Origin: a virus
Lineage: Duplodnaviria; Heunggongvirae; Uroviricota; Caudoviricetes
Strand: one strand, 5' to 3'
IMG/VR virus record: IMGVR_UViG_2728369181_000005
Length of the DNA stretch: 55,128 nucleotides
Under the pieces are notes generated by a model. The model made no database searches and was not told the origin of the DNA. It saw only the letters and a list, made by a program, of their open reading frames with translations. Both the position numbers and the translations under genes were made by a program. Positions 1-50,069 of this stretch are shown here, one piece after another. Each line of letters begins with the position of its first letter. The first letter of the stretch is position 1.

Positions 1-1143
1 CTATGCTGTTTTGATATCTACGATAATCCAGTCTTTACCACGATCATCATTGTATCGGTCGGTCATTTTTCTGGATTTATGGCCTAACAACTTTTGCGTA
101 TCCAGACCCTGTTCCCGATATAACCGTTCTGACAGAGATCGCTGCTCATGAAATGTGGGCGCAGTTCCTTGCTCCCATTTTATGCCACATTTTTCCCGGG
201 CCTTTTTAAAAGCCGTTGTCAGAGTATTTGCAGAAACCTGGTCTCCTCTGTTTGCTTGAGAGGTAGTGTGACGGTAATGGACCAGATATTTACTAACAAC
301 AGCATCCCTGCACTGAGATATAACTTCACGAAGGGTAATATTCAGAGCATCGCATTTCAGGTTAAGCGGAATAGCAAGTTTTGAACCGGTTTTTTCCTGA
401 GTAATGTGCAACATGTCGTCCCATATATCAGAGAATTTCAAATTGCAGATATCGCCTAAACGTTGTCCAGTAACAAGAGCAAGTAGCATGCCGCATTTTA
501 AATAGGGCTGCCGTCTGCTTACGCTGTCAAATATTGCCTGCCATTCGGGCAGTGACAATCTTTGGCGGTTTACTCGATTTCGCGGTTGTTTTGTTGCCTG
601 CGCTGGGTTAAATCCTGGCGGAACATGTCCTGCGTGTTGTGCTTCTTTGAAGACGTCGATCAACACCATTCTCACGACTTGCGCCATCCTGTTATGACCT
701 TCAGCCTTTACAGCATCAATTATTTCGGCAATATCAAGTGCGGTAATATCCTTGAGGTGTTGCATTCCACAATGCTCACGGAAAAGACGAATGGGTTTGC
801 CTTTTTGCCGATAGGAGTTGGGTCTTAGTTCATTATGTTGCAGCCTGTCCTCTTGGATAGAAATATATTTATCAAGCCATTCTGTCACCGTAATGTCTGA
901 GCGCCTGCCTTTCATTCTTTCCAGACGCTCATTGACGCTTAATATTTGTCTGGTACGTTGTTCAGCAATAATGGTATTTGCTTCAGTAGCAACTTGTTTT
1001 GCTTCATTCTCATCAGTTCCTAAGCTATGAAAACGACCGGATAGTGGATGTTTGTATTGCCAATATACCTTTCCGGTTCGCTTATCTAATTTGCAATATA
1101 AATTGGGTATAGAGATTTTGTGAGATCGGGGTCTAGCAGCCAT
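1..1143 (-). CDS. int: Tyrosine recombinase, lambda Int-like prophage integrase
   Basis: 380-codon ORF aligning along its length with lambda Int, including the C-terminal HELRSLSARLY...LLGHKS catalytic region; stop codon at window positions 1-3. Confidence 0.93.
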   Translation of the reverse strand: MAARPRSHKISIPNLYCKLDKRTGKVYWQYKHPLSGRFHSLGTDENEAKQVATEANTIIAEQRTRQILSVNERLERMKGRRSDITVTEWLDKYISIQEDRLQHNELRPNSYRQKGKPIRLFREHCGMQHLKDITALDIAEIIDAVKAEGHNRMAQVVRMVLIDVFKEAQHAGHVPPGFNPAQATKQPRNRVNRQRLSLPEWQAIFDSVSRRQPYLKCGMLLALVTGQRLGDICNLKFSDIWDDMLHITQEKTGSKLAIPLNLKCDALNITLREVISQCRDAVVSKYLVHYRHTTSQANRGDQVSANTLTTAFKKAREKCGIKWEQGTAPTFHEQRSLSERLYREQGLDTQKLLGHKSRKMTDRYNDDRGKDWIIVDIKTA

Positions 1144-1369
1144 CAGCGATTATCCTTTGGAGTTTTGGGTTTGCGTTTATTGGGAGTTGCGGTTCTGCAA
1201 GCGTTCCTACAAAACGGGAATTTCGGTCAATCATCCAGTAGCGACCAACTTTTATAGCGGGTGGGGCCATCATTTTCCCTTGCGCGTATTTTTTCAGAAC
1301 TCGCTCACTTGGTGCTAAGTCCCCAAATTCTTCTTTAGCCCAGTCCTGTAAAGTGATTAGTCGAGACAT
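1133..1369 (-). CDS. xis: Excisionase (Xis-like)
   Basis: 78-aa ORF immediately upstream of and overlapping int; LTLQ(D/E)W ... PPA.KVGR motif resembles the lambda Xis DNA-binding fold. Confidence 0.75.
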   Translation of the reverse strand: MSRLITLQDWAKEEFGDLAPSERVLKKYAQGKMMAPPAIKVGRYWMIDRNSRFVGTLAEPQLPINANPKLQRIIADGC

Positions 1370-1508
1370 TTGTCCTCCTCTTAGCTGCTGAGGGAGTTTG
1401 TGACCGATATATCTGACATGATATTAAGCTCATGGCAGGTACATCTCTTGACTGGTCATAGAGATAAATTTAATGCTGAGAAATGCAGTATTGAATTTAT
1501 CAATTTTT

Positions 1509-1748
1509 CTATTTCCTGCGCATGTCACGTAACTTCTTAATGTGTTCTGCCGTTTCGATCTCTTCTGCTATCCGATCTGCATCAGCTTTATTCACAGGTT
1601 CAAAGTCATGATTAAAGCGGAACATGCTGGCGATACATGTTCTGCCTTTTCGGATGTAGTGAACTTTGTTGTGGGTAGAACGCAGGATTTTGCAGGGAGT
1701 GCCGTGGTGGTCGACGTACCAGGTGTTAGGGTCAATCACTCTGAACAT
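1509..1748 (-). CDS. Hypothetical protein (int-exo accessory region)
   Basis: 79-codon ORF co-oriented with the early-left operon; no family recognised. Confidence 0.4.
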   Translation of the reverse strand: MFRVIDPNTWYVDHHGTPCKILRSTHNKVHYIRKGRTCIASMFRFNHDFEPVNKADADRIAEEIETAEHIKKLRDMRRK

Positions 1749-2061
1749 TCTTGACCTTGTGTTGTGCGGATTGATATTCAGTGCTGATATTCACCTTTAT
1801 AGCGAACACCTTTACCGGTTTATCGCCAAAGTGCGGATGTGTGATTGTCTTCACTTCATATCCGTCATACGGAACATCAATTCTGCGACTGGAATCGTCG
1901 CGCTTCGGATATCCCTTTGTGATAATCAGGCGGTCATATTCCCGGAACATAATTCGCTTATTCCAGTAGTCATTACACAAGCGATACTCTTCCGTTTTCT
2001 CTCCGCGAATCATGGCATCGAAGTATTCACTTTTAACAGCAAGTTGCAGGTTAGCCATCAC
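1732..2061 (-). CDS. Hypothetical protein
   Basis: 109-codon ORF, co-oriented, overlapping neighbours by a few codons (operon-like packing); possible ASCH/PUA-like fold is a guess. Confidence 0.4.
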   Translation of the reverse strand: MMANLQLAVKSEYFDAMIRGEKTEEYRLCNDYWNKRIMFREYDRLIITKGYPKRDDSSRRIDVPYDGYEVKTITHPHFGDKPVKVFAIKVNISTEYQSAQHKVKNVQSD

Positions 2062-2279
2062 TTAATCCCCCTTTGTTTGCGGATAAGCTCCAGATCTTGC
2101 TGGCAACTGGCGCAAGTCCGACAACCCTGAACGGCCAGGCGTCTTCGTTCATCTATCGGATCGCCACACTCACAACAATGAGTGGCAGATACAGCCAGGT
2201 AGTTCAGGCGGCGCATTTTTATTGCTGTGTTGCGCTGTAATTCTTCTATTTCTGATGCTGAATCAATGATGTCTGCCAT
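2058..2279 (-). CDS. DksA/TraR-family C4-type zinc-finger protein
   Basis: 73 aa with CxxC...17 residues...CxxC (CCECGD...CRTCASC), typical of phage TraR/DksA-like proteins. Confidence 0.65.
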   Translation of the reverse strand: MADIIDSASEIEELQRNTAIKMRRLNYLAVSATHCCECGDPIDERRRLAVQGCRTCASCQQDLELIRKQRGIK

Positions 2280-2377
2280 CTTTCATTAATCCCTGAACTG
2301 TTGGTTAATACGCTTGAGGGTGAATGCGAACAATAAAAAAGGAGCCTGTAGCTCCCTGATAATTTTGCTTTTCATGT

Positions 2378-2659
2378 TCATCGTTCCTTAAAGACGCCGT
2401 TTAACATGCCGATTGCCAGGCTTAAATGAGTCGGTGTGAATCCCTTCAGCGTTACCGTTTCGCGGTGCTTCTTCAGTACGCTACGGCAAATGTCATTGAC
2501 GTTTTTATCCGGAAACTGCTGTCTGACTTTTTTGATTTCAGAATTAGCCTGACGGGCAATGCTGCGAAGGGCGTTTTCTTGCTGAGGTGTCACTGAACAA
2601 GCCCCATGTCGGCAAGCATAAGCACACAGAATATGAAGCCCGCTGCCAGAAAAATGCAT
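2378..2659 (-). CDS. Hypothetical protein
   Basis: 93-codon ORF co-oriented with the early-left operon; start uncertain. Confidence 0.35.
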   Translation of the reverse strand: MHFSGSGLHILCAYACRHGACSVTPQQENALRSIARQANSEIKKVRQQFPDKNVNDICRSVLKKHRETVTLKGFTPTHLSLAIGMLNGVFKER

Positions 2660-2669
2660 TCAGTGGTTG

Positions 2670-2861
2670 TCATACCTGGTCTCTCTCATCTGCTTCTGCT
2701 TTCGCCACCATCATTTCCAGCTTTTGTGAAAGGGATGTGGCTAACGTATGAAATTCTTCGTCTGTTTCTGCTGGTATTGGCACAAACCTGACTCCAATTT
2801 GAGCAAGGCTATGTGCCAAATCAATACTCGTTCTTAACTCAACAGGAGATGCTTTGTGCAT
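2670..2861 (-). CDS. Hypothetical small protein
   Basis: 63-codon acidic ORF, co-oriented. Confidence 0.3.
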   Translation of the reverse strand: MHKASPVELRTSIDLAHSLAQIGVRFVPIPAETDEEFHTLATSLSQKLEMMVAKAEADERDQV

Positions 2862-3012
2862 ACCGCCCCCCGTTTATTATTTATCTCCTCAGCCAGCCGC
2901 TGGGCTTTCAGCGGATTTCGGATAACAGAAAGACCGTGAAATACCCAGCCTCGCTTTGTAACGGAGTAGACGAAAGTGATCGCGCCTACCCGGATATTAT
3001 CGTGAGGATGGG

Positions 3013-3693
3013 TCATCGCCATTGCTCTCCAAATACAAAACCAATTTCAGCCAGTGCTTCGTCCATTTTTTCGATGAACTCCGGCACCATCTCGTCAAAA
3101 CTCGCCATGTACTTTTCATCCCGCTCAACCACGACATAATGCAGGCCTTCACGCTTCATTCGTGGGTCATAGTTGGCAAAGTACCAGGCATCTTTTCGTG
3201 TCACCCACATGCTGTACTGCACCTGGGCCATGTAAGCCGACTTTATGGCCTCGAAACCACCGAGCCGGAACTTCATGAAATCCCGGGAGGTAAACGGGCA
3301 TTTCAGCTCAAGGCCATTGCCGTCACTGCATAAACCATCGGGAGAGCAGGCGGTGCGCATACTTTCGTCGCGATAGATGATCGGGGATTCAGTAACATTC
3401 ACGCCGGAAGTGAATTCAAACAGGGTTCTGGCGTCGTTCTCGTACTGTTTTCCCCAGGCCAGCGCCTTAGCATTAACTTCCGGAGCCACACCGGTGCAAA
3501 CCTCAGCCAGCAGGGTGTGGAAGTAGGACATTTTCATGTCAGGCCACTTCTTTCCTGAGCGGGGCTTTGCTATCACGTTGTGAACTTCTGAAGCGGTGAT
3601 GACGCCGAGCCGTAATTTGTGCCATGCATCATCCCCCTGTTCGACAGCTCTCACGTCGATCCCGGTACGCTGCAGGATAATGTCCGGTGTCAT
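3013..3693 (-). CDS. exo: Lambda exonuclease (Red-alpha)
   Basis: 226 aa, essentially identical to lambda Exo as recalled ([40 protein letters not shown]...). Confidence 0.97.
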
Positions 3694-4840: not shown

Positions 4841-5251
4841 TTAGTGATTCAGGCCGTTACCGCGTCCGTCGAGAAAAACTTCCACGAGCAAATCACGGGT
4901 ATAAGTGCGCTCGATGCCGCGATGCAGATATAGCCGTCCGCGTAAATTAGCTGATGCAGTCCAGGTACCATCTTTGTGTTTGACCAGCATTCCTGGCATG
5001 ACCGCACCTCGATTAACGGTCTGCGTTCCGTAATGTTGATGAACCATAAAAACTCCTGCCCGTAAGCTGGGCTGCTGAACATATAGAGACTTCTGCGCGT
5101 ATTCAGGCGGTGGATGGCCGCCGGTTGTCATAACTAAGTCGCCTCGTTGAAGCGACTGAGGTATGAAGTGTTGAGTTGATTCCAGCTGGTCACACCGACG
5201 TTCACGCGTCCGCTTCACCCCTCGCACTCCCCGGAGCCTGCTGAAATTCAA
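4841..5251 (-). CDS. Hypothetical protein at the N-gene position, Arg-rich N-terminus
   Basis: 136-codon ORF between the putative pL and gam; N-terminus RLRGVRGVKRTRERR is arginine-rich like N-type antiterminators, but no alignment to lambda N recognised. Confidence 0.35.
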   Translation of the reverse strand: MNFSRLRGVRGVKRTRERRCDQLESTQHFIPQSLQRGDLVMTTGGHPPPEYAQKSLYVQQPSLRAGVFMVHQHYGTQTVNRGAVMPGMLVKHKDGTWTASANLRGRLYLHRGIERTYTRDLLVEVFLDGRGNGLNH

Positions 5252-5299
5252 GCTGCGGATCTAAGCGGTCATCGCAACGGTGAATCAGGTGATTGCCGT

Positions 5300-5450
5300 A
5301 TCGTTGTGTTGTTGCGATGAATTCATTTAAAACTATAGTTGTTTTATCGTCAACAACAAAAGTTGTTTTGTTGGTTGTTTTAGATATAACTGGTTGTATT
5401 TAAGATGGATTTATTTTGTGACTTGCATCGCATAGCGATAACTGAAGCGA
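5300..5450 (-). promoter_or_regulatory. Putative oL/pL region
   Basis: Contains AACTATAGTTGTTTT and TGGTTGTTTT motifs resembling the AACAACCATAGTTTT / ATGGTTGTT operator-like palindromes between cI and cro; position equals lambda oL/pL. Confidence 0.35.
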
Positions 5451-5555: not shown

Positions 5556-6383
5556 TTAAACTTGGGGAAGTATTTTTTTTGCAAAATCAATAGTTTCTTT
5601 GTGGTTGGATGCAGGTATATGATTTATTTTCTTAGCATCCATAGTTCTCTTTATGATGTCAATAACTTTGCTTTGGCCTGCGTTTGGTGTTTCAGGAGTT
5701 TCAATTGTGAATAAAATGTCATCAAGTGAAAGCAGGTTTTCTTCTGCTGCTCGAGTTATTCTCATCACCCAAGTATCACTATGCTCCATCATTTTTCCTG
5801 GTTCAGCTTGAGTGAATGCCAGAGGTTTGATGGCACATTGGATCCTGTCATGCTTCTTGGCGACCAATGGCATTGAGAACTTTGCGAAATACCCATCAAT
5901 GGTTGCTTGTTTGAAGACGTTCTTCAATCCATCTATTCTATCGATACTTCGTTTTAGCTCTCTGGCTAGAACATCTTCACGGCGCTCTTTTGTATAGTCA
6001 GAGTGGTTTACATATTTATTGTAAATGCGGGCCAGCTCTTCTTTTGGGTTTTCGCTGAGAATCACTCTCGTAGAACTGAACTGAAAAATTGATTCTTTTT
6101 TGTTTGTAAAATATCTGAAGAATTGTGCAAGTTGTTGATGTCCAACAATCTGGGTCGCATGCATTTTTGCGAACTGTAGTTCTCTTTGTATTGAGTCTTT
6201 TGCTACAGGGAAAATACAATCATCATGGAAAAAATTCTTTACACGAGAGTCATTTCGCTTTGTGAGCTGGAAATCAAAGTAATTTTCTTTTGGCGCGCAC
6301 AGAAGTACGCCTATGTTTGCGAACTCTTCAGTCTCCGCATAAGGCGCATAGCGAACGATGCTATATAGGCATGGAGTTGTCAT
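5556..6383 (-). CDS. Hypothetical protein, second gene of the rex-slot operon
   Basis: AT-rich ORF; ATG at 6383 overlaps the upstream stop as ATGA. N-terminus YSIVRYAPYAETEEFANIGVLL is reminiscent of DUF3037-type proteins (from memory, unverified). Confidence 0.6.
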   Translation of the reverse strand: MTTPCLYSIVRYAPYAETEEFANIGVLLCAPKENYFDFQLTKRNDSRVKNFFHDDCIFPVAKDSIQRELQFAKMHATQIVGHQQLAQFFRYFTNKKESIFQFSSTRVILSENPKEELARIYNKYVNHSDYTKERREDVLARELKRSIDRIDGLKNVFKQATIDGYFAKFSMPLVAKKHDRIQCAIKPLAFTQAEPGKMMEHSDTWVMRITRAAEENLLSLDDILFTIETPETPNAGQSKVIDIIKRTMDAKKINHIPASNHKETIDFAKKILPQV

Positions 6384-7132
6384 TCTATTGCGCTCCAAAA
6401 TTCATCACAATCACCTTTGTCTAGCGTAGTGCAGACAAAAGGTAAAAACTCCTCATCTACTATCCACTCTTCTGGAATTTCGTCAAGGATAGCAGGAAGC
6501 TTGTGTAAACTGTTAACGACCCTCTGGCGGTACTCTACGCGATCCACTAAATCATATTGCCATTTGCGGTTACCAGGGCCGTACACGTGCACAGAAAAAT
6601 CTTCAGGTCCAGCATTCTGATCAAATGAGAGATTATGGTCAATCAGATAATACTTATCGTTACTGATGTCATAAAGGATGTTAACGTTTCCACCTTTGTC
6701 AGTAAGCGTTCTGTCTGCATTTAATATCCATTTATCAAAAACATAGATTAATTTTTGCTGTTCGACTGGGATGATCGTTTCGTTTCTTGACTGCGTAAAC
6801 GTTAACGCTATTGCACCGTCAATGAACAATGAAGCAAAGGCATATCCTGTACAAATTTGTTGCTGCAGATCAGGTGAGTACTCTATAAGTTCCTCTGGCA
6901 CAAATACGATTTTAAAGTCAGGTAAAGGAAGGCCGATATCATTAGCCAAACACGCCGAAATGAACTCAGCTAAGAGATTTTTCGGGGGCATTGATGGTTT
7001 TGACTTCAAAACATACAACTGCCCATCATCACATTTGCAAAGAAATGGCTGAGTGGAACCTTCATTGATGCGACGTATTACCTCAACGACATTAGGTATT
7101 GCACTATTGCTGCTCGCTACGCACTCCATCAC
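6380..7132 (-). CDS. Hypothetical kinase-like protein, first gene of the rex-slot operon
   Basis: 250-aa ORF 119 bp downstream of cI, same strand. Motifs suggest a protein-kinase-like fold: YVLK (beta-3 Lys), NADRTLTDKGGN (catalytic-loop-like D...N), LIDHN (DFG-like Asp). Confidence 0.6.
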   Translation of the reverse strand: MMECVASSNSAIPNVVEVIRRINEGSTQPFLCKCDDGQLYVLKSKPSMPPKNLLAEFISACLANDIGLPLPDFKIVFVPEELIEYSPDLQQQICTGYAFASLFIDGAIALTFTQSRNETIIPVEQQKLIYVFDKWILNADRTLTDKGGNVNILYDISNDKYYLIDHNLSFDQNAGPEDFSVHVYGPGNRKWQYDLVDRVEYRQRVVNSLHKLPAILDEIPEEWIVDEEFLPFVCTTLDKGDCDEFWSAIE

Positions 7133-8345: not shown

Positions 8346-8885
8346 ATGCAACCACTTACATACCAACAGACTAGCGGATTTAGCCCGACTGCGGTGATAA
8401 ATCGTTCTCAAACAAAACAGGTGCCAGGCCACGAAAAAATCCGTGATGCCGTCCGCGCCTGGTCGGCTGAAGATAATCAGGATGTTGTTGCCGCACTCAT
8501 TGTGAATGAGTATCGGGAGCAGGGCGGCGGCACCATCGATTTCCCTGATGATGTCAGCCGTGCACGCCAGAAGCTGTTCCGCTTCCTCGATAACAAATTC
8601 GATTCTGAAAAATACCGAAATAACGTGCGTGAACTGACCCCGGCAATTCTGGCGGTACTACCGCTGGACTATCGCGGCCACCTGGTTGAGCAGGATAGCT
8701 TCATGGCTCGGCTGGCTGAAATGGAAAAGGAACTCAGTGAGGCAAAGCAGGCGGTCATTCTCAACGCACCACGCCACCAGAAACTGAAGGAGATGAGTGA
8801 AGGCATTGTGTCGATGTTTCGAGTGGACCCGGATCTGGCTGGTCCATTGATGGCGATGGTCACCACCATGCTGGGGGCAATATGA
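8346..8885 (+). CDS. YdaT-like protein (occupies the cII position)
   Basis: 179 aa; EYREQGGG ... PAILAVLP motifs resemble Rac YdaT as recalled; immediately follows cro. Confidence 0.55.
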   Translation: MQPLTYQQTSGFSPTAVINRSQTKQVPGHEKIRDAVRAWSAEDNQDVVAALIVNEYREQGGGTIDFPDDVSRARQKLFRFLDNKFDSEKYRNNVRELTPAILAVLPLDYRGHLVEQDSFMARLAEMEKELSEAKQAVILNAPRHQKLKEMSEGIVSMFRVDPDLAGPLMAMVTTMLGAI

Positions 8886-8971
8886 CAGGTTCAAAAATGG
8901 TGAAAGTCGGTCTGCGGGAACAGAACCGACTTTCAGGTGCAAATCGTAACACACTCATTGCGGGAGGAATT

Positions 8972-9901
8972 ATGGCAAACACTGCTGAGATATTCAATTT
9001 TCCAGTGCCGGATGCGGCACAAAAGGAGCCGCGCGTGTCAGATCTCGATGATGGTTATACGCGCATTGCAAATGAGTTGCTGGAAGCTGTAATGCTGGCC
9101 GGATTAACACAGCACCAGCTTCTGGTCTTCCTGGCTGTCATGCGCAAAACATATGGCTTTAATAAAAAAATGGATTGGGTGAGCAACGAGCAACTTTCCG
9201 AGTTAACCGGGATATTGCCGCACAAGTGTTCTGCTGCAAAAAGTGTTCTGGTAAAGCGTGGGATTTTGATTCAGAGCGGGCGGAATATCGGCATTAATAA
9301 TGTGGTCAGTGAATGGTCAACATTACCCGAATCAGGTAAGAAAAATAAAGTTTACCTGAAAGAGGTAAAATTACCTGAATCAGGTAAGAAAAGTTTACCC
9401 AAATCAGGTAAAGGCGTTTACCCGAATCAGGTAAACACAAAAGACAAACTAACAAAAGACAATATAAAACCTTTTTCGTCCGAGAATTCTGACGAATCCT
9501 CTGACCAGCCAGAAAACGATCTTCCTGTGGTGAAACCGGATGCTGCAATTCAGAGCGGCAGCAAGTGGGGGACAGCAGAAGACCTGACCGCCGCAGAGTG
9601 GATGTTTGACATGGTGAAGACCATCGCGCCATCAGCCAGAAAACCGAATTTTGCAGGGTGGGCTAACGATATCCGCCTGATGCGTGAACGTGACGGACGT
9701 AACCACCGCGACATGTGTGTACTGTTCCGCTGGGCATGCCAGGACAACTTCTGGTCCGGTAACGTGCTGAGTCCGGCCAAACTCCGCGACAAGTGGACCC
9801 AGCTCGAAATCAACCGAAACAAGCAACAGGCTGGCGTGACAGCCGGCAAACCAAAACTCGACCTGACGAACACTGACTGGATTTACGGGGTGGAGCTATG
9901 A
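8972..9901 (+). CDS. O: Replication initiator O (hybrid: divergent N-terminus, lambda-identical C-terminus)
   Basis: GGGAGG SD before ATG 8972; N-terminus MANTAEIFNF parallels lambda O MTNTAKILNF; C-terminal ~110 aa match lambda O; iterons lie inside the gene. Confidence 0.9.
   Translation: MANTAEIFNFPVPDAAQKEPRVSDLDDGYTRIANELLEAVMLAGLTQHQLLVFLAVMRKTYGFNKKMDWVSNEQLSELTGILPHKCSAAKSVLVKRGILIQSGRNIGINNVVSEWSTLPESGKKNKVYLKEVKLPESGKKSLPKSGKGVYPNQVNTKDKLTKDNIKPFSSENSDESSDQPENDLPVVKPDAAIQSGSKWGTAEDLTAAEWMFDMVKTIAPSARKPNFAGWANDIRLMRERDGRNHRDMCVLFRWACQDNFWSGNVLSPAKLRDKWTQLEINRNKQQAGVTAGKPKLDLTNTDWIYGVEL
9320..9480. repeat. Replication origin iterons plus AT-rich flank inside O
   Basis: Four copies of TTACC(C/T)(G/A)AATCAGGTAA (9323-9340, 9371-9388, 9394-9411, 9417-9435) followed by an A-rich stretch; same architecture as ori-lambda. 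Confidence 0.85.
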
Positions 9902-10599
9902 AAAACATCGCCGCACAGATGGTTAACTTTGACCGTGAGCAGATGCGTCGGATCGCCAACAACATGCCGGAACAGTACGACGAAAAGCCGCAGGTACAAC
10001 AGGTAGCGCAGATCATCAATGGTGTGTTCAGCCAGTTACTGGCAACTTTCCCGGCGAGCCTGGCTAACCGGGACCAGAACGAACTGAACGAAATCCGCCG
10101 CCAGTGGGTGCTGGCTTTCCGGGAAAACGGGATCACCACAATGGAACAGGTTAACGCAGGAATGCGCGTAGCCCGTCGGCAGAATCGACCATTCCTGCCA
10201 TCACCCGGGCAGTTTGTTGCCTGGTGCCGGGAAGAAGCATCCGTTACCGCCGGGCTGCCAAACGCCAGCGAGCTGGTTGATATGGTTTACGAGTATTGCC
10301 GGAAGCGTGGCCTGTATCCGGACGCAGAGTCTTATCCATGGAAATCGAACGCGCACTACTGGCTGGTTACCAACCTGTACCAGAACATGCGAGCCAATGC
10401 GCTGACTGACGCGGAATTACGGCGCAAGGCTGCCGATGAACTGACCTGTATGACAGCGCGAATTAACCGTGGTGAGGCTATACCTGAACCAGTAAAACAA
10501 CTTCCTGTCATGGGCGGTAGACCTCTAAATCGTGCACAGGCTCTGGCGAAGATCGCAGAAATCAAAGCTAAGTTTGGGCTGAAAGGAGCAAGTGTATGA
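9898..10599 (+). CDS. P: Replication protein P (DnaB helicase loader)
   Basis: 233 aa, near-identical to lambda P (MKNIAAQMVNFDREQMRRIANNMPEQYDEKPQ...); ATGA overlap with O. Confidence 0.97.
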   Translation: MKNIAAQMVNFDREQMRRIANNMPEQYDEKPQVQQVAQIINGVFSQLLATFPASLANRDQNELNEIRRQWVLAFRENGITTMEQVNAGMRVARRQNRPFLPSPGQFVAWCREEASVTAGLPNASELVDMVYEYCRKRGLYPDAESYPWKSNAHYWLVTNLYQNMRANALTDAELRRKAADELTCMTARINRGEAIPEPVKQLPVMGGRPLNRAQALAKIAEIKAKFGLKGASV

Positions 10600-10883
10600 C
10601 GGGCAAAGAGGCAATTATTCATTACCTGGGGACTCATAAGAACTTCTGTGCGCAGGACGTTGCCGCGGTAACAGGCGCAACCGTAACCAGCATAAATCAG
10701 GCTGCGGCTAAAATGGCGCGGGCAGGAATCCTGGTCGTTGATGGTAAGGTCTGGCGAACGGTGTATTATCGGTTCGCTACCAGAGAAGAACGGGAAGGAA
10801 AGATGAGCACGAACCTGATTTTTAAGGAGTGTCGCCAGAGTGCCGCGATGAAGCGAGTGTTGGCGATGTATGGGCGAGGATGA
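10596..10883 (+). CDS. ren: Ren (Rex exclusion relief protein)
   Basis: 95 aa matching lambda Ren (MTGKEAIIHYLGTH...). Confidence 0.9.
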   Translation: MTGKEAIIHYLGTHKNFCAQDVAAVTGATVTSINQAAAKMARAGILVVDGKVWRTVYYRFATREEREGKMSTNLIFKECRQSAAMKRVLAMYGRG

Positions 10884-11168
10884 GTGATGGAACGGGGCTT
10901 GACCTGTATGCTGTCCGTGTACTTGCAAGGAAATTTAGATGCAGTACGAGATGAGTCCATCAAAAATAAACTCAAAAATCAAAGTGAGTAGGTACATCGT
11001 TTGCAATCGACAATGCCCTATAATAGATGTTGAATAATTGCATAAAATGATGCTATACCTCTTTTGCCTTATTCATATTGAGTTTAATTCTTCTCAACAG
11101 AAAGGACTTATCGACGCACGATAAGTGTCATATATGCAATTGTTTATCAACACAAAATCTGAGGAATT

Positions 11169-11435
11169 ATGATTACTAGAAATCTTGGCGAAGAAACAAT
11201 CAATAGTATTATCGAAGAAGATAATCTGCTGTCAGAGCAGGTTCAAGTCATTGATGGTTGCATCGTTATAAATATTGAATATGAGTACCCCATTCCCTTG
11301 AATACATGCTCAACTTATCAACAAATTTTGCATTGGGTATGGCACTTGGCGGAAAAAACATGGATGACGCAAATTGTCACTCGTCGTTTCATCGAAATTG
11401 CCTGCCAACATCATAATTTAGAATATAATTATTAA
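11169..11435 (+). CDS. Hypothetical protein (AT-rich, first gene of nin-region cassette)
   Basis: 88-codon ORF in strongly AT-rich DNA right after ren; no family recognised. Confidence 0.4.
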   Translation: MITRNLGEETINSIIEEDNLLSEQVQVIDGCIVINIEYEYPIPLNTCSTYQQILHWVWHLAEKTWMTQIVTRRFIEIACQHHNLEYNY

Positions 11436-11466
11436 TTATCAGATTCATTTTTTGAATCAAACAACT

Positions 11467-11582
11467 ATAATTAAGTCATCGAAGCCTGAACAACTCTGGT
11501 GACTTCTGCGCTAAACGGGGCATTTATGCGCGTATACAACCTAAACTCTCTCCTCCTGTCACAGATGCAGAAATGCACCTGT
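11467..11582. repeat. Left copy of a ~115-bp imperfect direct repeat
   Basis: Shares GAGCCTGAACAACT..GGTGACTTCTGCGCTAAACGGGG...TCACAGATGCAGAAATGCACCTG with 13947-14062 (roughly 85-90 percent identical by eye). Confidence 0.85.
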
Positions 11583-11655
11583 GTTTTTTGTATTCGGTGT
11601 TTTACCTCAACAGCCAGAACTGAGAGTATCTATTCGTCTGGCGGCTAATGGTGAT

Positions 11656-11745
11656 ATGGAAATCGTTATGTCTTGGCCTGAAGCAATTGTAACTGTTGTA
11701 GTCACTATGGCTATGATCATCGTGGTGTCCATTTACTGGGGTTGA
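11656..11745 (+). CDS. Possible 29-codon hydrophobic micro-ORF
   Basis: ATG GAA ATC ... TGA encodes MEIVMSWPEAIVTVVVTMAMIIVVSIYWG, a single predicted TM helix; weak hairpin plus T7 tract at 11834-11853 downstream. Confidence 0.2.
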   Translation: MEIVMSWPEAIVTVVVTMAMIIVVSIYWG

Positions 11746-12009
11746 CGACATGATTTATCTGGGGATATATTCTTACGAGTTGCCGGAAAATCGGCACACG
11801 GGATTGGCGTCCCGGAATACTACTCAACGCATGCCGCGTTAAGCGGTTTTTTTATGCGCTAAGCACGGCTACGCCCAAATTATGGTGGGCTGTGTGAGGG
11901 CTTCTTCGGGAGCGCCGGGTTTGAGTAGCCGGTTACGCCAACCTTGCACAGTTCACCACCAGTCGATTGGCGTCGTTGGTGGTGATGGTTAACCTGATGA
12001 GGTGATACT

Positions 12010-12618
12010 ATGACTACTCAATTAGCATTCCACAAAACGACGTTTACCCCGATTTGCCACAATAACAGAATTTGGCTTACTGCCACTGAAGTTGGTTTAG
12101 CTCTGGAATATGCGGACGATAAAGCAGTTCAGCGTATTTACTCTCGTCACTCAGATGAATTTACAGATATGATGACAAGGGTGGTCAAAGTGACCACCCC
12201 TCGTGGAATGCAGGAGTCTCGAGTATTTAGCCTTCGCGGAGCCCATCTGATCGCCATGTTTGCTCGTACTCCTGTGGCCAAAGAATTCCGCCGCTGGGTG
12301 CTGGATATTCTCGATCGAGAAATTCAACAATCCCCAATCACAAAACAATTCACTGATAACGAACTTTGCACACTTGCTTGGTTATGGCGAGCAGGGGATA
12401 TGATGTTAACTGCCTGCCAGAACGTTACTCCACTTCTTCAGGTTGCGGAGCACCGCGAAGCTGGTCGCTTTACTTCTATCGGGCAAGAATATCCCCAGAT
12501 ACTACATAAGGCGCGCGAAATCCTTGCCAGAGAAACGGCACATGTGAAACTCCAGCCTTGGCAGGATAATAAGTGGAGCAGGGTGTTGCCACATTTGCGT
12601 CAGGATAGATTGCAATAG
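12010..12618 (+). CDS. BRO-N-like / antirepressor-like protein
   Basis: 202 aa; the N-terminal FHKTTFTPI...IWLTATEVGLALEY pattern resembles the BRO-N DNA-binding domain of phage antirepressors. Confidence 0.5.
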   Translation: MTTQLAFHKTTFTPICHNNRIWLTATEVGLALEYADDKAVQRIYSRHSDEFTDMMTRVVKVTTPRGMQESRVFSLRGAHLIAMFARTPVAKEFRRWVLDILDREIQQSPITKQFTDNELCTLAWLWRAGDMMLTACQNVTPLLQVAEHREAGRFTSIGQEYPQILHKAREILARETAHVKLQPWQDNKWSRVLPHLRQDRLQ

Positions 12619-12780
12619 TTTTACATATTAGGCGCTGAATGGATGCAATCAGATAGCGCACTGGGCGGCAATGATTAAGGCTTCAGATAAGCCAAGTAAG
12701 CACTGAAAAAGTTCAATGTAATCAAATTCTCTTTATGGTATTTTCGTTAGACATCTCATACGCTTAGATGGAAATTTGAA

Positions 12781-12981
12781 ATGATGTATTCAGTAACTTT
12801 CGATGAAACTGGACGAGTAGAAGATATTGAACTAGAGCGTGAGGTTAGAGCCGGAGATAGACTCTCGCTTAATATTGATGGTCTTGATGGTATTTATATA
12901 GTCATGACTGTTAGCGGCCCTATCTATGAAAATGTTTGTGTGCCAATGAATATCCGGGTTCAAAAGTATTGGAAGCAATGA
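12781..12981 (+). CDS. Hypothetical small protein
   Basis: 66-codon ORF in the AT-rich cassette. Confidence 0.3.
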   Translation: MMYSVTFDETGRVEDIELEREVRAGDRLSLNIDGLDGIYIVMTVSGPIYENVCVPMNIRVQKYWKQ

Positions 12982-13015
12982 TGTATAATCCCCTCAGATG
13001 ATCGAGGGGATTTTT

Positions 13016-13189
13016 ATGTCAGATTGGAACATTGCAGCAAAACCGCAAGAGGAACGTGACAATGTTAACTTTGACCTTGCTGCGTCTGGTGTTGCATATA
13101 AAGAACGCTCCAAAATTCTCGTCATAGCCGAAGTGGTGATGTGCCAGCAACCAGAGCATCTTTGTGATTACTTCATGGAGCGCGTCTGA
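13016..13189 (+). CDS. Hypothetical small protein
   Basis: ORF with candidate start MSDWNIAAKP; AT-rich cassette. Confidence 0.25.
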   Translation: MSDWNIAAKPQEERDNVNFDLAASGVAYKERSKILVIAEVVMCQQPEHLCDYFMERV

Positions 13190-13261
13190 CTTCTCCATTG
13201 AGCATAGCATCACCCAGCCTAAAACATCTGACCCTAGATATATGAAACAGGAGGAAGATAA

Positions 13262-13894
13262 ATGAAATTCTCTCGAATTGAACAAAGCCCAACAACGGAT
13301 GAGGGTAATTACGTGAAAATCGATCATGACTTTGGCTATTTTCTAGATCCTAATAAAATGGCCTCGATAGCTAACTATGAGGATGAGTCTGCCGCGCTAT
13401 TAAAATTGATGCTAATTCATGAGGACTTTCTTCGGGTTGTTATTGAAAACTTACGACCTGATGGCTCTGAAAAATACAATTCGATAAGAAGCTATAAGTA
13501 TTTTGCGTCAAAGCTGTCTGCCGCAGTTCTGTTAGGGCTGCCTGTCTCGCTTGCAGACGCTATGGCTGAGCTCAACACAATACGTAACAAGTACGCTCAT
13601 AAAATTGAATATGTAATTACAAATGAAGAGGTTGATAAACTCGCAGAATCGATTAAAAACATAAAGTTAGAAGAGATTAACCATGGTGGCTACGTGCATC
13701 AAGTTGTTGAGCCAATTCTCAAGGATGGAATCTACGCTATAGCGTTGATGAAAGAGCTACCTCCTGATCTTGAAGAAAATCGCATTCGTATTTGTAAGTT
13801 AGTCACTAGCGCGCATTGTATGTGTTTGCTCGGGGCCTTCTGGTTAATTAACACTCTGCACGTAAAGGGTAAGCTCAAGCTTTCCAAGGCCTGA
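13262..13894 (+). CDS. Hypothetical protein with HEPN-like R-x4-H motif (candidate defence gene)
   Basis: 210 aa with strong AGGAGG SD; AT-rich; contains NTIRNKYAHK (R-N-K-Y-A-H), comparable to RNKLGDAHG in the island protein at 37096-37857. Confidence 0.55.
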   Translation: MKFSRIEQSPTTDEGNYVKIDHDFGYFLDPNKMASIANYEDESAALLKLMLIHEDFLRVVIENLRPDGSEKYNSIRSYKYFASKLSAAVLLGLPVSLADAMAELNTIRNKYAHKIEYVITNEEVDKLAESIKNIKLEEINHGGYVHQVVEPILKDGIYAIALMKELPPDLEENRIRICKLVTSAHCMCLLGAFWLINTLHVKGKLKLSKA

Positions 13895-13946
13895 GTAGAT
13901 CAATCGTGTCATTTTCGCAAAATTGATTCTCCGTAATCAATTCGCC

Positions 13947-14062
13947 ATAATTGTATCACCGGAGCCTGAACAACTTCGGTGACTTCTGCGCTAAACGGGG
14001 ACGTTTATGCGCACACACAATCCAAACTCTCTTCTCCCTTCACAGATGCAGAAATGCACCTG
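13947..14062. repeat. Right copy of the ~115-bp imperfect direct repeat
   Basis: See 11467-11582; ends just before the ninB ribosome-binding site. Confidence 0.85.
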
Positions 14063-14104
14063 CAATTCTTTGCATCTAACGTTTGACCTCTGCGGAGGTG
14101 AAGC

Positions 14105-14560
14105 GTGAACCTCTCACAAGACGGCATCAAATTACATCGCGGCAACTTCACCGCTATCGGCCAGCAGATCCAGCCTTATCTGGAGGAAGGCAAATGCTTT
14201 CGCATGGTGCTTAAACCGTGGCGTGAGAAACGCAGTCTTTCCCAGAATGCACTCAGCCACATGTGGTACAGCGAAATCAGTGAATACCTCATCAGCAGGG
14301 GGAAATCGTTCGCTACCGCAGCATGGGTAAAAGATGCTCTCAAACACACATACCTCGGTTATGAAACCAAGGACCTGGTTGATGTCGTAACCGGCGAAAT
14401 CACTACTATCCAGTCGTTACGCCATACCTCCGATCTCGATACCGGAGAGATGTATGTCTTCCTGTGTAAGGTTGAAGCCTGGGCGGTGAATATTGGCTGC
14501 CACCTGACTATTCCGCAGAGCTGCGAGTTCCAGCTGCTGCGCGACAAGCAGGAGGCGTAA
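14105..14560 (+). CDS. ninB: NinB-family recombination protein
   Basis: GTG start with GGAGG SD; [13 protein letters not shown] parallels the NRSLDQNRKLWA segment of lambda NinB; nin-region position. Confidence 0.75.
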
Positions 14561-14722
14561 TGGCTACACCGCTTATTCGTGTCATGAACGGACACATCTA
14601 CAGAGTACCAAATCGTCGTAAGCGTAAGCCTGAGCTGAAACCATCCGAAATACCAACACTGCTCGGATATACCGCCAGCCTGGTTGATAAAAAATGGTTG
14701 CGACTGGCAGCAAGGAGGAATC

Positions 14723-15594: not shown

Positions 15595-15978
15595 ATGCGT
15601 GATGTTCAGATGGTTCTTGAGCGTTGGGGGGCGTGGGCAGCTAATAATCATGAAGATGTGACCTGGTCGTCCATTGCTGCCGGTTTTAAGGGATTAATTC
15701 CTTCAAAAGTAAAATCTCGCCCGCAATGTTGTGACGATGACGCGATGATCATTTGCGGGTGCATGGCCCGTCTGAAAAAGAACAACAGCGATTTACACGA
15801 TTTATTAGTAGATTATTATGTATGTGGTATGACATTCATGTCACTGGCAAGTAAGCATTGCTGCTCGGATGGTTATATCGGGAAAAGGTTACAGAAGGCT
15901 GAGGGCATAATTGAAGGGATGTTAATGGCATTAGATATCCGGTTAGATATGGATATCGTTGCTAATAATTCTAATTGA
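15595..15978 (+). CDS. Q: Late-gene antiterminator Q (DLP12 QuuD / phage 82-type)
   Basis: [26 protein letters not shown]... with a Cys-rich zinc-binding region; position before the lysis cassette. Confidence 0.85.
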
Positions 15979-16010
15979 TATGCAATTGTTTACTAAAAGT
16001 TATTAAAAAT

Positions 16011-16166: not shown

Positions 16167-17249
16167 TTAGAACTGATAAACCAGACCTACAGCGACGATG
16201 TCGTCGGTATCAATACCAGCTGTTTTGGTAAACTTACTATCGTCAATTAAGTTGATTTTGTAATCAACAAAAGTGGACATGTTTTTATTAAAGTAGTAAG
16301 TAGCACCGACATCGACATACTTGACTAAGTCTCGGTCACCATGAACACCAAGGTCTTTACCTTTTGACTGAAGGTAAGCAACAGATGGGCGCAGACCGAA
16401 GTCAAACTGATATTGTGCTACTGCTTCAAAGTTTTGTGCTTTGTTTGCAATATGGTTATTACCAAAAACGGTCATATTCTGAGTTTCAGAATATGTGGTA
16501 GCCAGATAGATATTGTTCGCATCATATTTCAGGCCTGCAGCCCATACTTCCGCATTTTTGCCGGAGGCATTGAATTTGCTCTTACCATAGGCGACCTGAC
16601 CGTCAGTGCGATCTGATTTAGCATAGGTTGCACCCACGCCGAATCCTTCATACTCATAAGTAGTGGAGAAACCGAAACCATCACCATTGGCTTCAGTTAC
16701 GTCAGTGCGGTCATTTTTACCCTGATACTGAGCAGCAAAGTTCAGGCCATCGACCAGACCAAAGAAGTCGTTGTTACGATAAGTTGCAACACCAGTAGTG
16801 CGACCAGTCATGAACACATCTGTTTGGGTCCAGGTATCACCACCGAATTCTGGCAGAACGTCAGTCCACGCACCGATGTCGTATGCTACACCGTAGTTAC
16901 GGCCGTAATCGATTGAGCCGTAATCACCAAATTTCAGGCCTGCAAATGCAAGACGGGTTTTGTCTTTGGAAGAACCTTGAGATTCAGCACGGTTGCCTTT
17001 GAATTCATATTCCCACTGACCGAAACCAGTCAGTTGATCGTTGATTTGGGTTTCACCTTTGAAGCCAAGACGGGCATAAGTAGTATCACCATCATCTGCA
17101 TCATTAGAGGAGAAGTAGTGCTTGGCATTAACTTTCCCGTATAGATCCAGCTTGTTACTGTCTTTATTATAAATTTCAGCTGCCTGAGCAGACATCGCCA
17201 TCAGTACTGATGCAGCTACAGCAGAAATTGCCACTGTTAATTTTTTCAT
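16167..17249 (-). CDS. nmpC: OmpC-family general porin (NmpC/Lc-type prophage porin)
   Basis: Signal peptide [23 protein letters not shown], porin hallmarks (AEIYNKD..., C-terminal ...VAVGLVYQF); opposite strand to flanking phage genes. Confidence 0.9.
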
Positions 17250-17675
17250 TGTACGCCCTTTTTTTGAACTATTATAAAAAAATGATGTCACTGCGCGATA
17301 AATATTCATCTAATCAATGTGATTATTTCAAGATGTAAGTTTTAGTTTCTCATTTAATTTGTGAAGTAGATCTCTATTTTTATCTGAACCTTTTCTATCT
17401 AATCCTATTCATAGCTCTTGTCTGAACAAAAATAAATCTATTAGCTAATTTATATTAATGGCACTTATTTATAAGTGCTCTATAATTCTTTAGCTTAATT
17501 TAAACAAACTAAAAATAACATCGGAAATTATTGACTGGTTATTTGTTGAAGTTTTCTTATGCATTTGTGGTGGTGTTTTGAACACTCGGTGGCATTCTCA
17601 CAAATATCATTTAGTAGTTTACGTACGTAAAAAATTGGTTATGCTGTTAAGAGTGGTTACTTCGTCACACAGCTT

Positions 17676-46548: not shown

Positions 46549-46814
46549 AAACGGGGGCTGAAGCCATCCGCGCACTGGCCACACAGCTCCCGGTGTTTCG
46601 TCAGAAACTGAGCGACGGCTGGTATCAGGTACGGATTGCCGGGCGGGACGTCAGCACGTCCGGGTTAACGGCGCAGTTACATGAGACTCTGCCTGATGGC
46701 GCTGTGATTCATATTGTTCCCAGAGTCGCCGGGGCCAAGTCAGGTGGCGTATTCCAGATTGTCCTGGGGGCTGCCGCCATTGCCGGATCATTCTTTACCG
46801 CCGGAGGGATTTGA
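46446..46814 (+). pseudogene. I: Tail assembly protein I, truncated after ~121 residues
   Basis: Matches lambda gpI up to ...AIAGSFFTAG, then reads GI-stop where J-homologous sequence begins in another frame. Confidence 0.6.
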
Positions 46815-49800: not shown

Positions 49801-50069
49801 GTTCTGTTTCGCGGTGGTAAGCATGAAAACTTCAACAGCAACAACCAACAGTCATACTGGTATTCAACCTGTAAGCTGCANNNNNNNNNNNNNNNNNNNN
49901 NNNNNNNNNNNNNNNNNNNNNNNNNNNNNNNNNNNNNNNNNNNNNNNNNNNNNNNNNNNNNNNNNNNNNNNNNNNNNNNNNNNNAAATAACTGGACGCCA
50001 ACGACCAGTATCAGCGACCTTCTTGTTGTCGTGATGAAGAAATCAACAGCCGGCATCAGTATCAGTTGA
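46801..50069 (+). pseudogene. J: Central tail fibre / host-specificity protein J, 5'-truncated, with two assembly gaps
   Basis: Homology to lambda gpJ begins at PEGFESSGSETVLGTEVKYD (about 85 residues into J as recalled) with no start codon nearby; N-runs at 46924-46997 and 49881-49984; C-terminal receptor-binding region diverges from lambda. Confidence 0.7.

Follow-up and report, generated by a model that had tools for sequence, protein, structure and literature searches.

The subject of this report is a 55,128-nucleotide stretch of DNA, here called the window, that forms IMG/VR virus record IMGVR_UViG_2728369181_000005. Between ren and the ninB-family gene ybcN it carries a block of about 3 kb bracketed by two direct repeats, and the question is what this block consists of and what the repeats are. 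A first-pass annotation, made from the sequence alone, had described the block (11100-14104) as an AT-rich accessory cassette that looked acquired or exchanged by recombination at a conserved element, a pattern likened to defence islands. From the results given below, the block is probably a composite accessory insert between P/ren and the nin-Q operon, built in three layers: two copies of a regulatory element, termed E, an antirepressor switch, and a slot for cargo. The earlier picture of an accessory cassette, defensive in part and seated at a conserved element prone to recombination, is upheld; the cassette combines known parts in a new way at a known hotspot, and the under-described item is E itself.

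Two copies of a conserved, structured element

The two direct repeats do bracket most of the ren-ninB block. A repeat search returned the block pairs 11455-11520/13935-14000 (82% identical) and 11517-11581/13998-14062 (85%), offset by one indel, which gives cores at 11455-11581 and 13935-14062 with 82-85% identity; a 127-nt match at about 84% is far beyond chance in a 55-kb window. The boundaries given earlier (11467-11582 and 13947-14062) located the core correctly and fell short in extent, as the homology reaches about 24 nt further left, to a -35 hexamer. On the right it fades at the ninB ribosome-binding site, where the second repeat had been said to end. Identity over the whole homologous stretch (11443-11605 versus 13923-14086) is 76%, and the mean column identity in a MAFFT alignment of about 190 columns is 86%. 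A covariance model of E found exactly two matches in the window, of 129 and 132 bits.

Comparison across lambdoid phages, proposed with the first-pass annotation, showed that the repeat is a conserved module of about 165-180 bp, normally present once and immediately 5' of ninB/ybcN, with varying cargo upstream. BLAST with the second repeat, copy B, found 6311 places in 4255 of the 5426 complete Escherichia coli genomes searched (about 78%, median one per genome). The element was also found in phages 82, phi80, HK639, HK225 and CobraSix, in Klebsiella and Enterobacter phages, in at least 120 IMG/VR contigs (exact-pattern scan), and in Escherichia, Enterobacter, Citrobacter, Lelliottia, Trabulsiella and others (genome scan). 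In every annotated case it fills the gap directly before the NinB-family gene.

The left edge of E is sharp. Among 108 distinct upstream flanks, the information content stays at about zero until the hexamer TTGATT (93 of 108), which stands exactly 17 bp before CATAAT in 96 of them, and the pair is a predicted sigma-70 promoter. The inverted complement of the -35 hexamer, AATCAA, lies within the spacer in 70 of the 108 flanks (TTGATT-N6-AATCAA); in a comparison by eye, the consensus sites of FNR, CRP, Fur, IHF and LexA each differ from this motif in spacing or sequence. At the predicted transcript start lies stem-loop 1 (SL1), in which about ten unrelated stem sequences carry the 9-nt loop (C/A)CUGAACA(A/C), CCUGAACAA. 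The linker that follows, GACUUCUGCGC, is invariant and single-stranded. SL2 has five stem types around a GGGA loop, which is the Shine-Dalgarno sequence of a small upstream open reading frame (uORF), and its 3' arm holds the ATG or GTG start of that frame. SL3, of the form CAGAUGCA-GAAA-UGCACCUG, lies within the uORF; it has a GNRA-type loop with a U-rich tract after it, and shows compensated changes from A-U to C-G and, at the loop-closing pair, from A-U to U·G. The SL3 of copy A pairs over 10 bp with a single mismatch, closes in a GAAA loop and is followed by U6. The parts of the two copies are placed as follows.

Copy A, plus strand: -35 TTCATT 11444-11449; -10 TATAAT 11466-11471; SL1 11476-11502, loop 11485-11493; linker 11501-11511; SL2 11508-11531; uORF from the ATG at 11526 to 11648; SL3 11560-11583, then T6 11584-11589.
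Copy B, plus strand: -35 TTGATT 13923-13928; -10 CATAAT 13946-13951; SL1 13956-13982, loop 13965-13973; linker 13981-13991; SL2 13988-14012; uORF (ylcH/orf33) 14007-14108; SL3 14042-14061.

The uORF (ylcH/orf33, about 32-33 codons) stays open despite indels and exists in three N-terminal and three C-terminal types. RefSeq calls it as a 33-codon ORF in E. coli strain 09A19CPO009 and as ylcH in K-12. Its stop codon overlaps the ATGA or GTGA start of a gene for a 145-151-amino-acid protein in 115 of 129 instances; in the window, the GTG start of ybcN overlaps the ylcH stop in this way (GTGA). The encoded peptide shifts from QMQKCTC to QMLNGTC exactly where the loop of SL3 changes and its stem is kept, which indicates that the RNA is constrained and not the peptide. 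Hence, what counts in the uORF seems to be the act of translation together with the shape of the RNA.

Covariation was tested on a covariance-model realignment of 108 matches (89 distinct). Paired cells amounted to 90.3%, compared with 83.0% in shuffled alignments, none of 500 shuffles reaching the observed value, and double changes were found at 17 of 25 pairs, compared with 7.4±1.5 in shuffles; in slid controls, only 25-36% of cells could pair. The three hairpins of E are thus supported by covariation. Folding z-scores were -4.0 for copy B and -5.4 for the copy of phage 82. MAFFT mis-registers SL2 between stem types, and RNAalifold then saw only its outer pairs; SL2 was therefore analysed by per-hairpin folds and by the realignment, in which the bulged SL2 of the 82 type was scored as unpaired in about 40 cells. 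The scan with Rfam 15 yielded no match over either copy, even at E-values up to 10 with permissive filters, and only isrK and C4 pass their gathering scores in the whole window. The EcOnc/AgvB/AsxR small RNAs of enterohaemorrhagic E. coli and the Pas small RNAs were considered as a match for E and rejected; they lie downstream of Q.

The two copies have not diverged equally. Copy B is 100% identical to copies in other phages, the copies closest to copy A are 87.5% identical to it, and by per-hairpin folds SL1 and SL2 of copy A are weaker than in typical copies. Consequently, the pair did not arise by recent tandem duplication.

Transcription of E and its proposed role

Public data show that E is transcribed. 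Curated Term-seq 3' ends of uninduced K-12 (572349/572350, plus strand; PMC7815308) lie 19 nt before the ylcH ATG, just 3' of SL1 and inside the linker, right after GACUUCUG. RNA of ylcH has been detected in the K-12 transcriptome, in the one transcriptomics table that constitutes the literature found on this gene. In the Salmonella prophage Gifsy-1, the covariance model found a reduced form of E (30.2 bits, E-value 6.7e-7; locus L165, 7804-7865), composed of a -10-like GATAAT, an SL1 with the same loop and the linker ACCUUCUGCGCC, followed directly by the first nin gene (DUF1367) and devoid of SL2, uORF and SL3. Since it is the loop and the linker that this form retains, they look like the functional core. 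The start site of the Gifsy-1 antQ operon, mapped 1.6 kb upstream of antQ (PMC4825925), coincides exactly with the reduced E, and the operon rises upon AnrP expression and induction (PMC4825925).

The best reading of E is that of a promoter-leader for the nin-Q operon. In almost all phages it would head the ninB...Q operon as a single copy and, most likely, give it a transcription start of its own that is independent of pR. From the early transcript ends, the occluded start of the uORF and the terminator-like character of SL3, it seems that transcription mostly ends early, after SL1 or at SL3. SL2 would bury the uORF start, and translation of ninB would be coupled to that of the uORF. As E fronts an operon that ends in the late-gene antiterminator Q, it is the likely source of the pR-independent nin/Q transcription which in Gifsy-1 underlies AntQ toxicity, and what controls it would matter for spontaneous induction and for the expression of genes of cryptic prophages, among them rusA and the lysis genes of DLP12.

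An alternative, which we regard as unlikely, is that E is chiefly a small-RNA gene, whose short product (SL1 with the linker, or SL1 to SL3, about 30-115 nt) acts in trans and whose dose is doubled by the second copy. The succession of promoter, hairpins and U run is suited to such a gene, the K-12 3' end falls right after GACUUCUG, and loop and linker are both invariant and single-stranded. One candidate target is the leader of the pL operon, in which the complement of the invariant linker is found: 40 nt before the kil-like start, the 11-mer forms a conserved antisense island, and the island also occurs in HK639, CobraSix and three IMG/VR leader types that differ in flanks and spacing. However, the conserved uORF and its coupling to ninB point to a role in cis, phi80 breaks the 11-mer without compensation, and about 0.8 such 11-mers are expected in the window by chance, compared with four sites of at least 11 nt, one of them of 14 nt. 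ViennaRNA duplexfold scans returned implausibly low energies even for shuffled sequences and were not used; exact k-mer counts were taken instead.

The leftward operon of the window has the following landmarks. A pL-like promoter, TTGACG-17-TTAAAT (5320-5350, minus strand), lies amid AACAAC-type operator repeats, and 3' of it come a leader of about 260 nt (5048-5312), the kil-like gene and gam; an N gene was not recognised, and the leader gave no alignment with the annotated putL RNA of HK639. The linker 11-mer (GACTTCTGCGC) recurs at 5088-5098 on the plus strand, that is, on the same DNA strand as E and antisense to the pL transcript, between a tL1-type hairpin (5106-5122) and the kil-like start codon (5048). 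The same island is present in loci L168 (2587), L169 (4072) and L167 (4884) and is degenerate in phi80. The 14-nt site, at 48489-48502 (plus strand) in the gene of a 1106-amino-acid tail protein (J, 46714-50034), is perfectly complementary to the 3' arm of SL1 and the linker of copy B (CGGUGACUUCUGCG). Although only about 0.01 such sites are expected by chance, the match is probably a coincidence, as the stem part is not conserved among E copies.

A combined form of the two ideas seems quite doubtful to us: E would be a leader in cis and also the gene of a short trans-acting RNA (SL1 with the GACUUCUGCGC tail) that pairs with the island of the pL operon, immediately beyond the tL1-type hairpin. 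It may be this RNA whose 3' end Term-seq recorded in K-12. Such pairing would link nin-Q to the expression of kil-gam-bet-exo, or else keep leaky kil silent in lysogens, and the second copy of E in the cassette would raise the dose of the RNA.

Lambdoid mosaics are known to carry short conserved boundary sequences. The repeats might accordingly be passive homology patches or recombination scars whose conservation reflects recent spread among related phages, and the near-identity of many copies and the partial degeneration of copy A fit such an origin. We consider it improbable for the promoter-leader element described above: conservation sets in sharply at a -35 hexamer whose distance to the -10 is fixed at 17 bp, stems vary with compensation around fixed loops, indels and three different 3' ends have left intact both the reading frame and its stop/start overlap, and transcript ends map to the element in two species.

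The tR2 terminator of lambda lies between ren and the nin genes. E could thus be nothing more than a tR2-type terminator region of the rightward early operon, with promoter-like hexamers that are incidental; its position matches, every copy has SL3 and a U run (in copy A a perfect T6), and an inverted repeat is annotated at the place of E in phi80. This explanation is very improbable, since it leaves unaccounted for the conserved -35 and -10 hexamers at fixed spacing, the SL1 at the predicted +1, the coupling of the uORF and the start site mapped in Gifsy-1 at a reduced E that has no SL3. That the cassette is one mobile element, a transposon or integrative cassette with the repeats as its terminal or target-site repeats, is hardly credible: direct repeats do bracket about 2.4 kb of lower-GC DNA, but there is no transposase, integrase or recombinase among the cassette ORFs (Pfam, PHROG, NCBIfam), the repeats are direct, about 127-165 nt long and about 84% identical, unlike target duplications, which are short and exact, each repeat amounts to a full regulatory module of which thousands of genomes hold a single copy, and the parts between the repeats occur separately in other genomes.

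Antirepressor module, cargo and the slots between E copies

The cassette and its flanks comprise the following features.

10596-10883, plus strand: ren, left flank of the variable region ('protein ren' of RefSeq in the identical E. coli chromosome).
11169-11435, plus strand: orf88 (88 amino acids), cargo of slot 1, between ren and copy A; phrog_12459 and phrog_2559, both families of unknown function.
11444-11605, plus strand: repeat copy A (E_A); covariance-model match 11471-11602, 129.3 bits.
11581-11745, plus strand: orf54; phrog_4612, E-value 6e-28, full length.
11742-11853, plus strand: predicted isrK promoter (11742-11771) and IsrK small RNA (11781-11853); Rfam RF01394, promoter and terminator scan.
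11878-11963, plus strand: C4 antisense-type RNA (Rfam RF01695), with an overlapping 36-codon ORF at 11882-11992.
12010-12618, plus strand: antirepressor (Bro-N and P22_AR_C); Pfam PF02498 (4.8e-10) and PF10548 (2.2e-16), PHROG Ant families.
12781-12981, plus strand: orf66 (phrog_38858), followed by a strong intrinsic terminator at 12987-13012 plus a T run (terminator scan).
13016-13265, plus strand: homologue of DNA polymerase III theta (HolE-like), frameshifted; PF06440, 5.9e-20 on the 63-amino-acid front part.
13262-13894, plus strand: HepS homologue, 210 amino acids; phmmer against PDB 9oij, HEPN motif R108-x4-H113.
13923-14108, plus strand: repeat copy B (E_B), the native ninB leader; covariance-model match 13951-14084, 132 bits.
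14105-14560, plus strand: ybcN (NinB family), right flank; NCBIfam PRK09741 (5e-83), phrog_72 NinB/Orf, Pfam NinB at threshold.

The 88-amino-acid ORF, the Bro-N antirepressor, the two small ORFs (66 and 63 amino acids) and the 210-amino-acid gene that had been listed for the block are all present; orf54, the IsrK and C4 RNAs and the ylcH/orf33 within copy B had been missed. No match to orf88 was found in Pfam, NCBIfam or PADLOC. The term 'AT-rich' applies to the region as a whole (42.9% GC, compared with 48.7% in the window) but not to the antirepressor module: composition is patchy, with 35.6% GC at 10884-11442, about 40.6% at 12619-13894 and 47.5-49.8% across that module.

At the core of the cassette lies a predicted IsrK/C4-controlled antirepressor module, regulatory rather than defensive. 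Copy A would have captured a downstream unit other than nin-Q, in the order orf54, isrK promoter, IsrK, C4 with its 36-codon ORF, and ant, which would act as an RNA-controlled antirepressor switch of the type of P1 immI and Gifsy-1 isrK-anrP. The conserved small protein Orf54 has a hydrophobic C-terminus and starts within the 3' arm of SL3 of copy A; its homologues follow A-type copies at other loci with amino acids kept across nucleotide changes, and it is truncated in O157:H7. IsrK scored 55.9 bits (gathering score 50), with a promoter-like site TTGACG-18-TATATT and, as predicted by the scan, a hairpin at 11833-11847 followed by T7, to 11853; a sub-threshold c4-a1b1 match lies at 11767-11818. 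C4 scored 72.7 bits (gathering score 45), and the 36-codon ORF over it is the positional analogue of Gifsy-1 orf45. The unit E_A-orf54-isrK-C4 was found in 309 genomes, including an O157:H7 Stx-type prophage.

The stretch from ant to copy B would be a cargo slot, occupied here by orf66, by a theta gene that is dead and by a putative abortive-infection nuclease of the HEPN class and HepS type. The orf66 terminator has a 9-bp stem with five GC pairs, and the same orf66 occurs in another locus, L029. The theta homologue is marked 'frameshifted' by RefSeq, the 63-amino-acid ORF being its front part; theta is intact in L029 (81 amino acids) and is present 5' of E in HK639 and CobraSix. The 210-amino-acid protein matched HepS (9oij_A) by phmmer with an E-value of 6.9e-62 (residues 1-208 versus 3-203) and a profile of its homologues matched PDB 9oij at 4.8e-44; by BLASTP it is 51% identical to Salmonella Gifsy-1 HepS. 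In its HEPN motif, IRNKYAH, R108 and H113 align with R100 and H105 of HepS; R108, N109 and H113 are invariant in 44 homologues, and Pfam gives weak HEPN matches. Taken on its own, the location of the gene, in a prophage and between replication genes and nin/antirepressor genes, likewise agrees with HepS. As orf66 and theta also precede a different HEPN-like (R-x4-H) gene in L029, orf66 is a possible partner of the HepS homologue.

HepS of Gifsy-1 is a single-protein HEPN abortive-infection tetramer of solved structure (Sargen et al., Nature 2026, PMC13043305; PDB 9oij), whose triggers are the tail-tip proteins of siphoviruses and whose targets are the anticodon loops of tRNAs, which it cleaves (PMC13043305). 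By homology, the window protein would be inactive in the lysogen and would cleave these loops once the tail-tip protein of a foreign siphovirus appears. No cassette protein had a real match in PADLOC-DB 2023, a database built before HepS was described; Salmonella HepS and orf88, used as tblastn queries on the phage collection, gave no matches. For defence biology, the cassette adds an E. coli HepS-type gene.

The ren-ninB site consists of two cargo slots, each closed at its right by E. The exact cassette is present in 2 of the 5426 genomes and its flanks in thousands, in accordance with the claim that it is accessory and not the common content of lambdoid phages. Slot 1, from ren to E_A, holds orf88 in the window; its content is PD-lambda-1 in PhiR26_1 and in many E. 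coli strains, and O157 has a different gene there. Slot 2, from ant to E_B, holds orf66, the theta remnant and the HepS-like gene in the window; orf66, theta and the different R-x4-H protein in L029; a HEPN protein with a partner in the O157:H7 Stx-type prophage; and a 169-amino-acid protein in PhiR26_1. In phages with a single E, emrE-ybcK-ybcL-ybcM precede it in DLP12 of K-12, and theta with small genes in HK639 and CobraSix. In the O157:H7 Z1811 prophage (L164, 1-318), the layout E_A-ant-E_B is accompanied by a SIR2-family gene beside the repressor and a HEPN pair in slot 2, which puts several defence-like genes on one prophage. In locus L072 (IMG/VR contig 2609459941_000002, 6846-11083), two E copies surround a tail-fibre-like gene, the gene of a 620-amino-acid protein with a cytotoxic rRNase domain of the colicin-E3/cloacin type at its end (PF09000, 1.7e-34), and an immunity gene of the cloacin type (PF03513, 2.2e-39); the cargo is a bacteriocin-like module in the nin hotspot. 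The first E of this locus is still trailed by the first ybcN codons, then come the foreign cargo and the second E, and the ybcN remnant is a direct trace of duplication by recombination.

The proposed recombination at a conserved element agrees with this comparative anatomy, from which we infer it; the element is, however, a predicted promoter with a structured leader and a uORF and not merely a recombination site. E is near-identical between otherwise unrelated phages and ends exactly at gene boundaries, and may therefore serve as a homology patch for swapping the units behind it, in which case two E-headed modules placed in tandem would produce the bracketing repeats. The E model also offers a simple sequence handle to harvest cargo from thousands of prophages; the slots of the few examples seen here already yield PD-lambda-1, pairs of HEPN genes, genes like that of HepS and a toxin of the colicin-E3 type together with its immunity gene.

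Several points weigh against the composite reading. Promoter, attenuation and coupling are putative functions of E, read from its sequence and from two public datasets of other strains, and the K-12 3' end could stem from read-through transcripts trimmed to SL1 and not from an E promoter. In most copies SL3 is a modest terminator, its U run being interrupted and set off from the stem by 2 nt; the scan for terminators left the hairpin of copy A unflagged and flagged only an alternative hairpin in copy B. Copy A is degenerate and may be decaying rather than functional; A-type copies form no tight clade, so that travel of E with the ant module is not established. In Gifsy-1 the small orf45 overlaps the start of the antirepressor gene (PMC4825925), and in the window such AUGA coupling is absent, the small ORF ending at 11992, 18 nt before the ant ATG at 12010. 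The antirepressors differ as well, AnrP of Gifsy-1 having an ORF6N domain and the window protein Bro-N and P22_AR_C. Finally, identity to HepS is only 51%, an AlphaFold model built with 8 sequences reached a predicted local distance difference test score (pLDDT) of 36.8 and was discarded, so that a tetramer and a trigger specificity like those of HepS are conjectural in the window protein.

The window as a whole is a lambdoid prophage of E. coli, 100% identical over 10600-14600 (a 4-kb query) to the chromosome of strain 09A19CPO009; strain 95-3322 is another carrier of this prophage. The order is a cI-like repressor, cro/YdaS, YdaT, O (8882-9901), P (9898-10599) and ren, then the accessory block and, to its right, the ybcN/NinB-family gene, ninE, ybcO, rusA, ylcG, quuD and an ompC-like porin gene, a nin region of the phage-82/DLP12 type. 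The ompC/nmpC-like porin gene (16167-17309, minus strand) lies downstream of quuD as in DLP12; an IpeX-type RNA was not found there by Rfam at gathering threshold in the window scan. Directly 3' of the cI-like repressor, in a rexAB-like slot expressed in the lysogen, are genes for a HipA_2-type kinase (250 amino acids, PF20613, 1e-76) and a DUF3037 protein (280 amino acids), then a terminator (5556-7132, minus strand); this position makes the two genes a candidate toxin or defence system. The 15-mer ATATGCAATTGTTTA is present in two exact copies, at 11132-11146, just 5' of orf88, and at 15978-15992, directly after the quuD stop, with loosely similar flanks (76% mean column identity, 51 of 97 columns identical), and may be a shared promoter or operator fragment.

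Comparison with known systems

Lambdoid defence hotspots, such as that of PD-lambda-1 at this site and the rexAB-type one beside cI, likewise have variable, often toxic or defensive, lower-GC cargo between conserved flanks. Unlike in those, the right border of each slot is here a defined regulatory element, and the site is split by an E-headed antirepressor module. That module shares with Gifsy-1 isrK-orf45-anrP and with P1/P7 immI c4-icd-ant the order of a promoter (here predicted), IsrK with a terminator (here likewise predicted), C4/STnc1160-type RNA over a small ORF, and antirepressor; it lies upstream of the nin-Q operon and is preceded by E_A and orf54, whereas the isrK-anrP module of Gifsy-1 lies downstream of Q. 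HepS of Gifsy-1 is, like its homologue, a prophage protein of about 210 amino acids in an accessory slot between P and the nin/Q operon. The homologue follows the antirepressor module and a dead theta gene, whereas the neighbour in Gifsy-1 is a deoxynucleoside triphosphate pyrophosphohydrolase, and host and phage differ.

E itself resembles the lambda pR'-6S RNA-tR' unit and leader-peptide attenuators in its constitutive-looking promoter, short structured leader and terminator-like hairpin, to which E adds a small ORF ahead of the operon; it has no sequence relation to either, and no Q-binding element or amino-acid-sensing codon run was identified in it. The same element is contained in the region upstream of orf33(ylcH)-orf151(ybcN) of phage 82/DLP12, deposited during the 1996 work on rusA (GenBank X92588), where a putative -35, a putative -10, an inverted repeat as 'possible regulator-binding site', a ribosome-binding site and orf33 are marked. 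These annotations are unverified and concern one sequence; E has no Rfam entry, and they are the only earlier description that we found. What the present analysis adds to them is the distribution of E, its sharp boundaries, the covarying hairpins, the apparent coupling of the uORF, the transcript evidence, the reduced form in Gifsy-1 and the proposed role of E as a duplicated joint.

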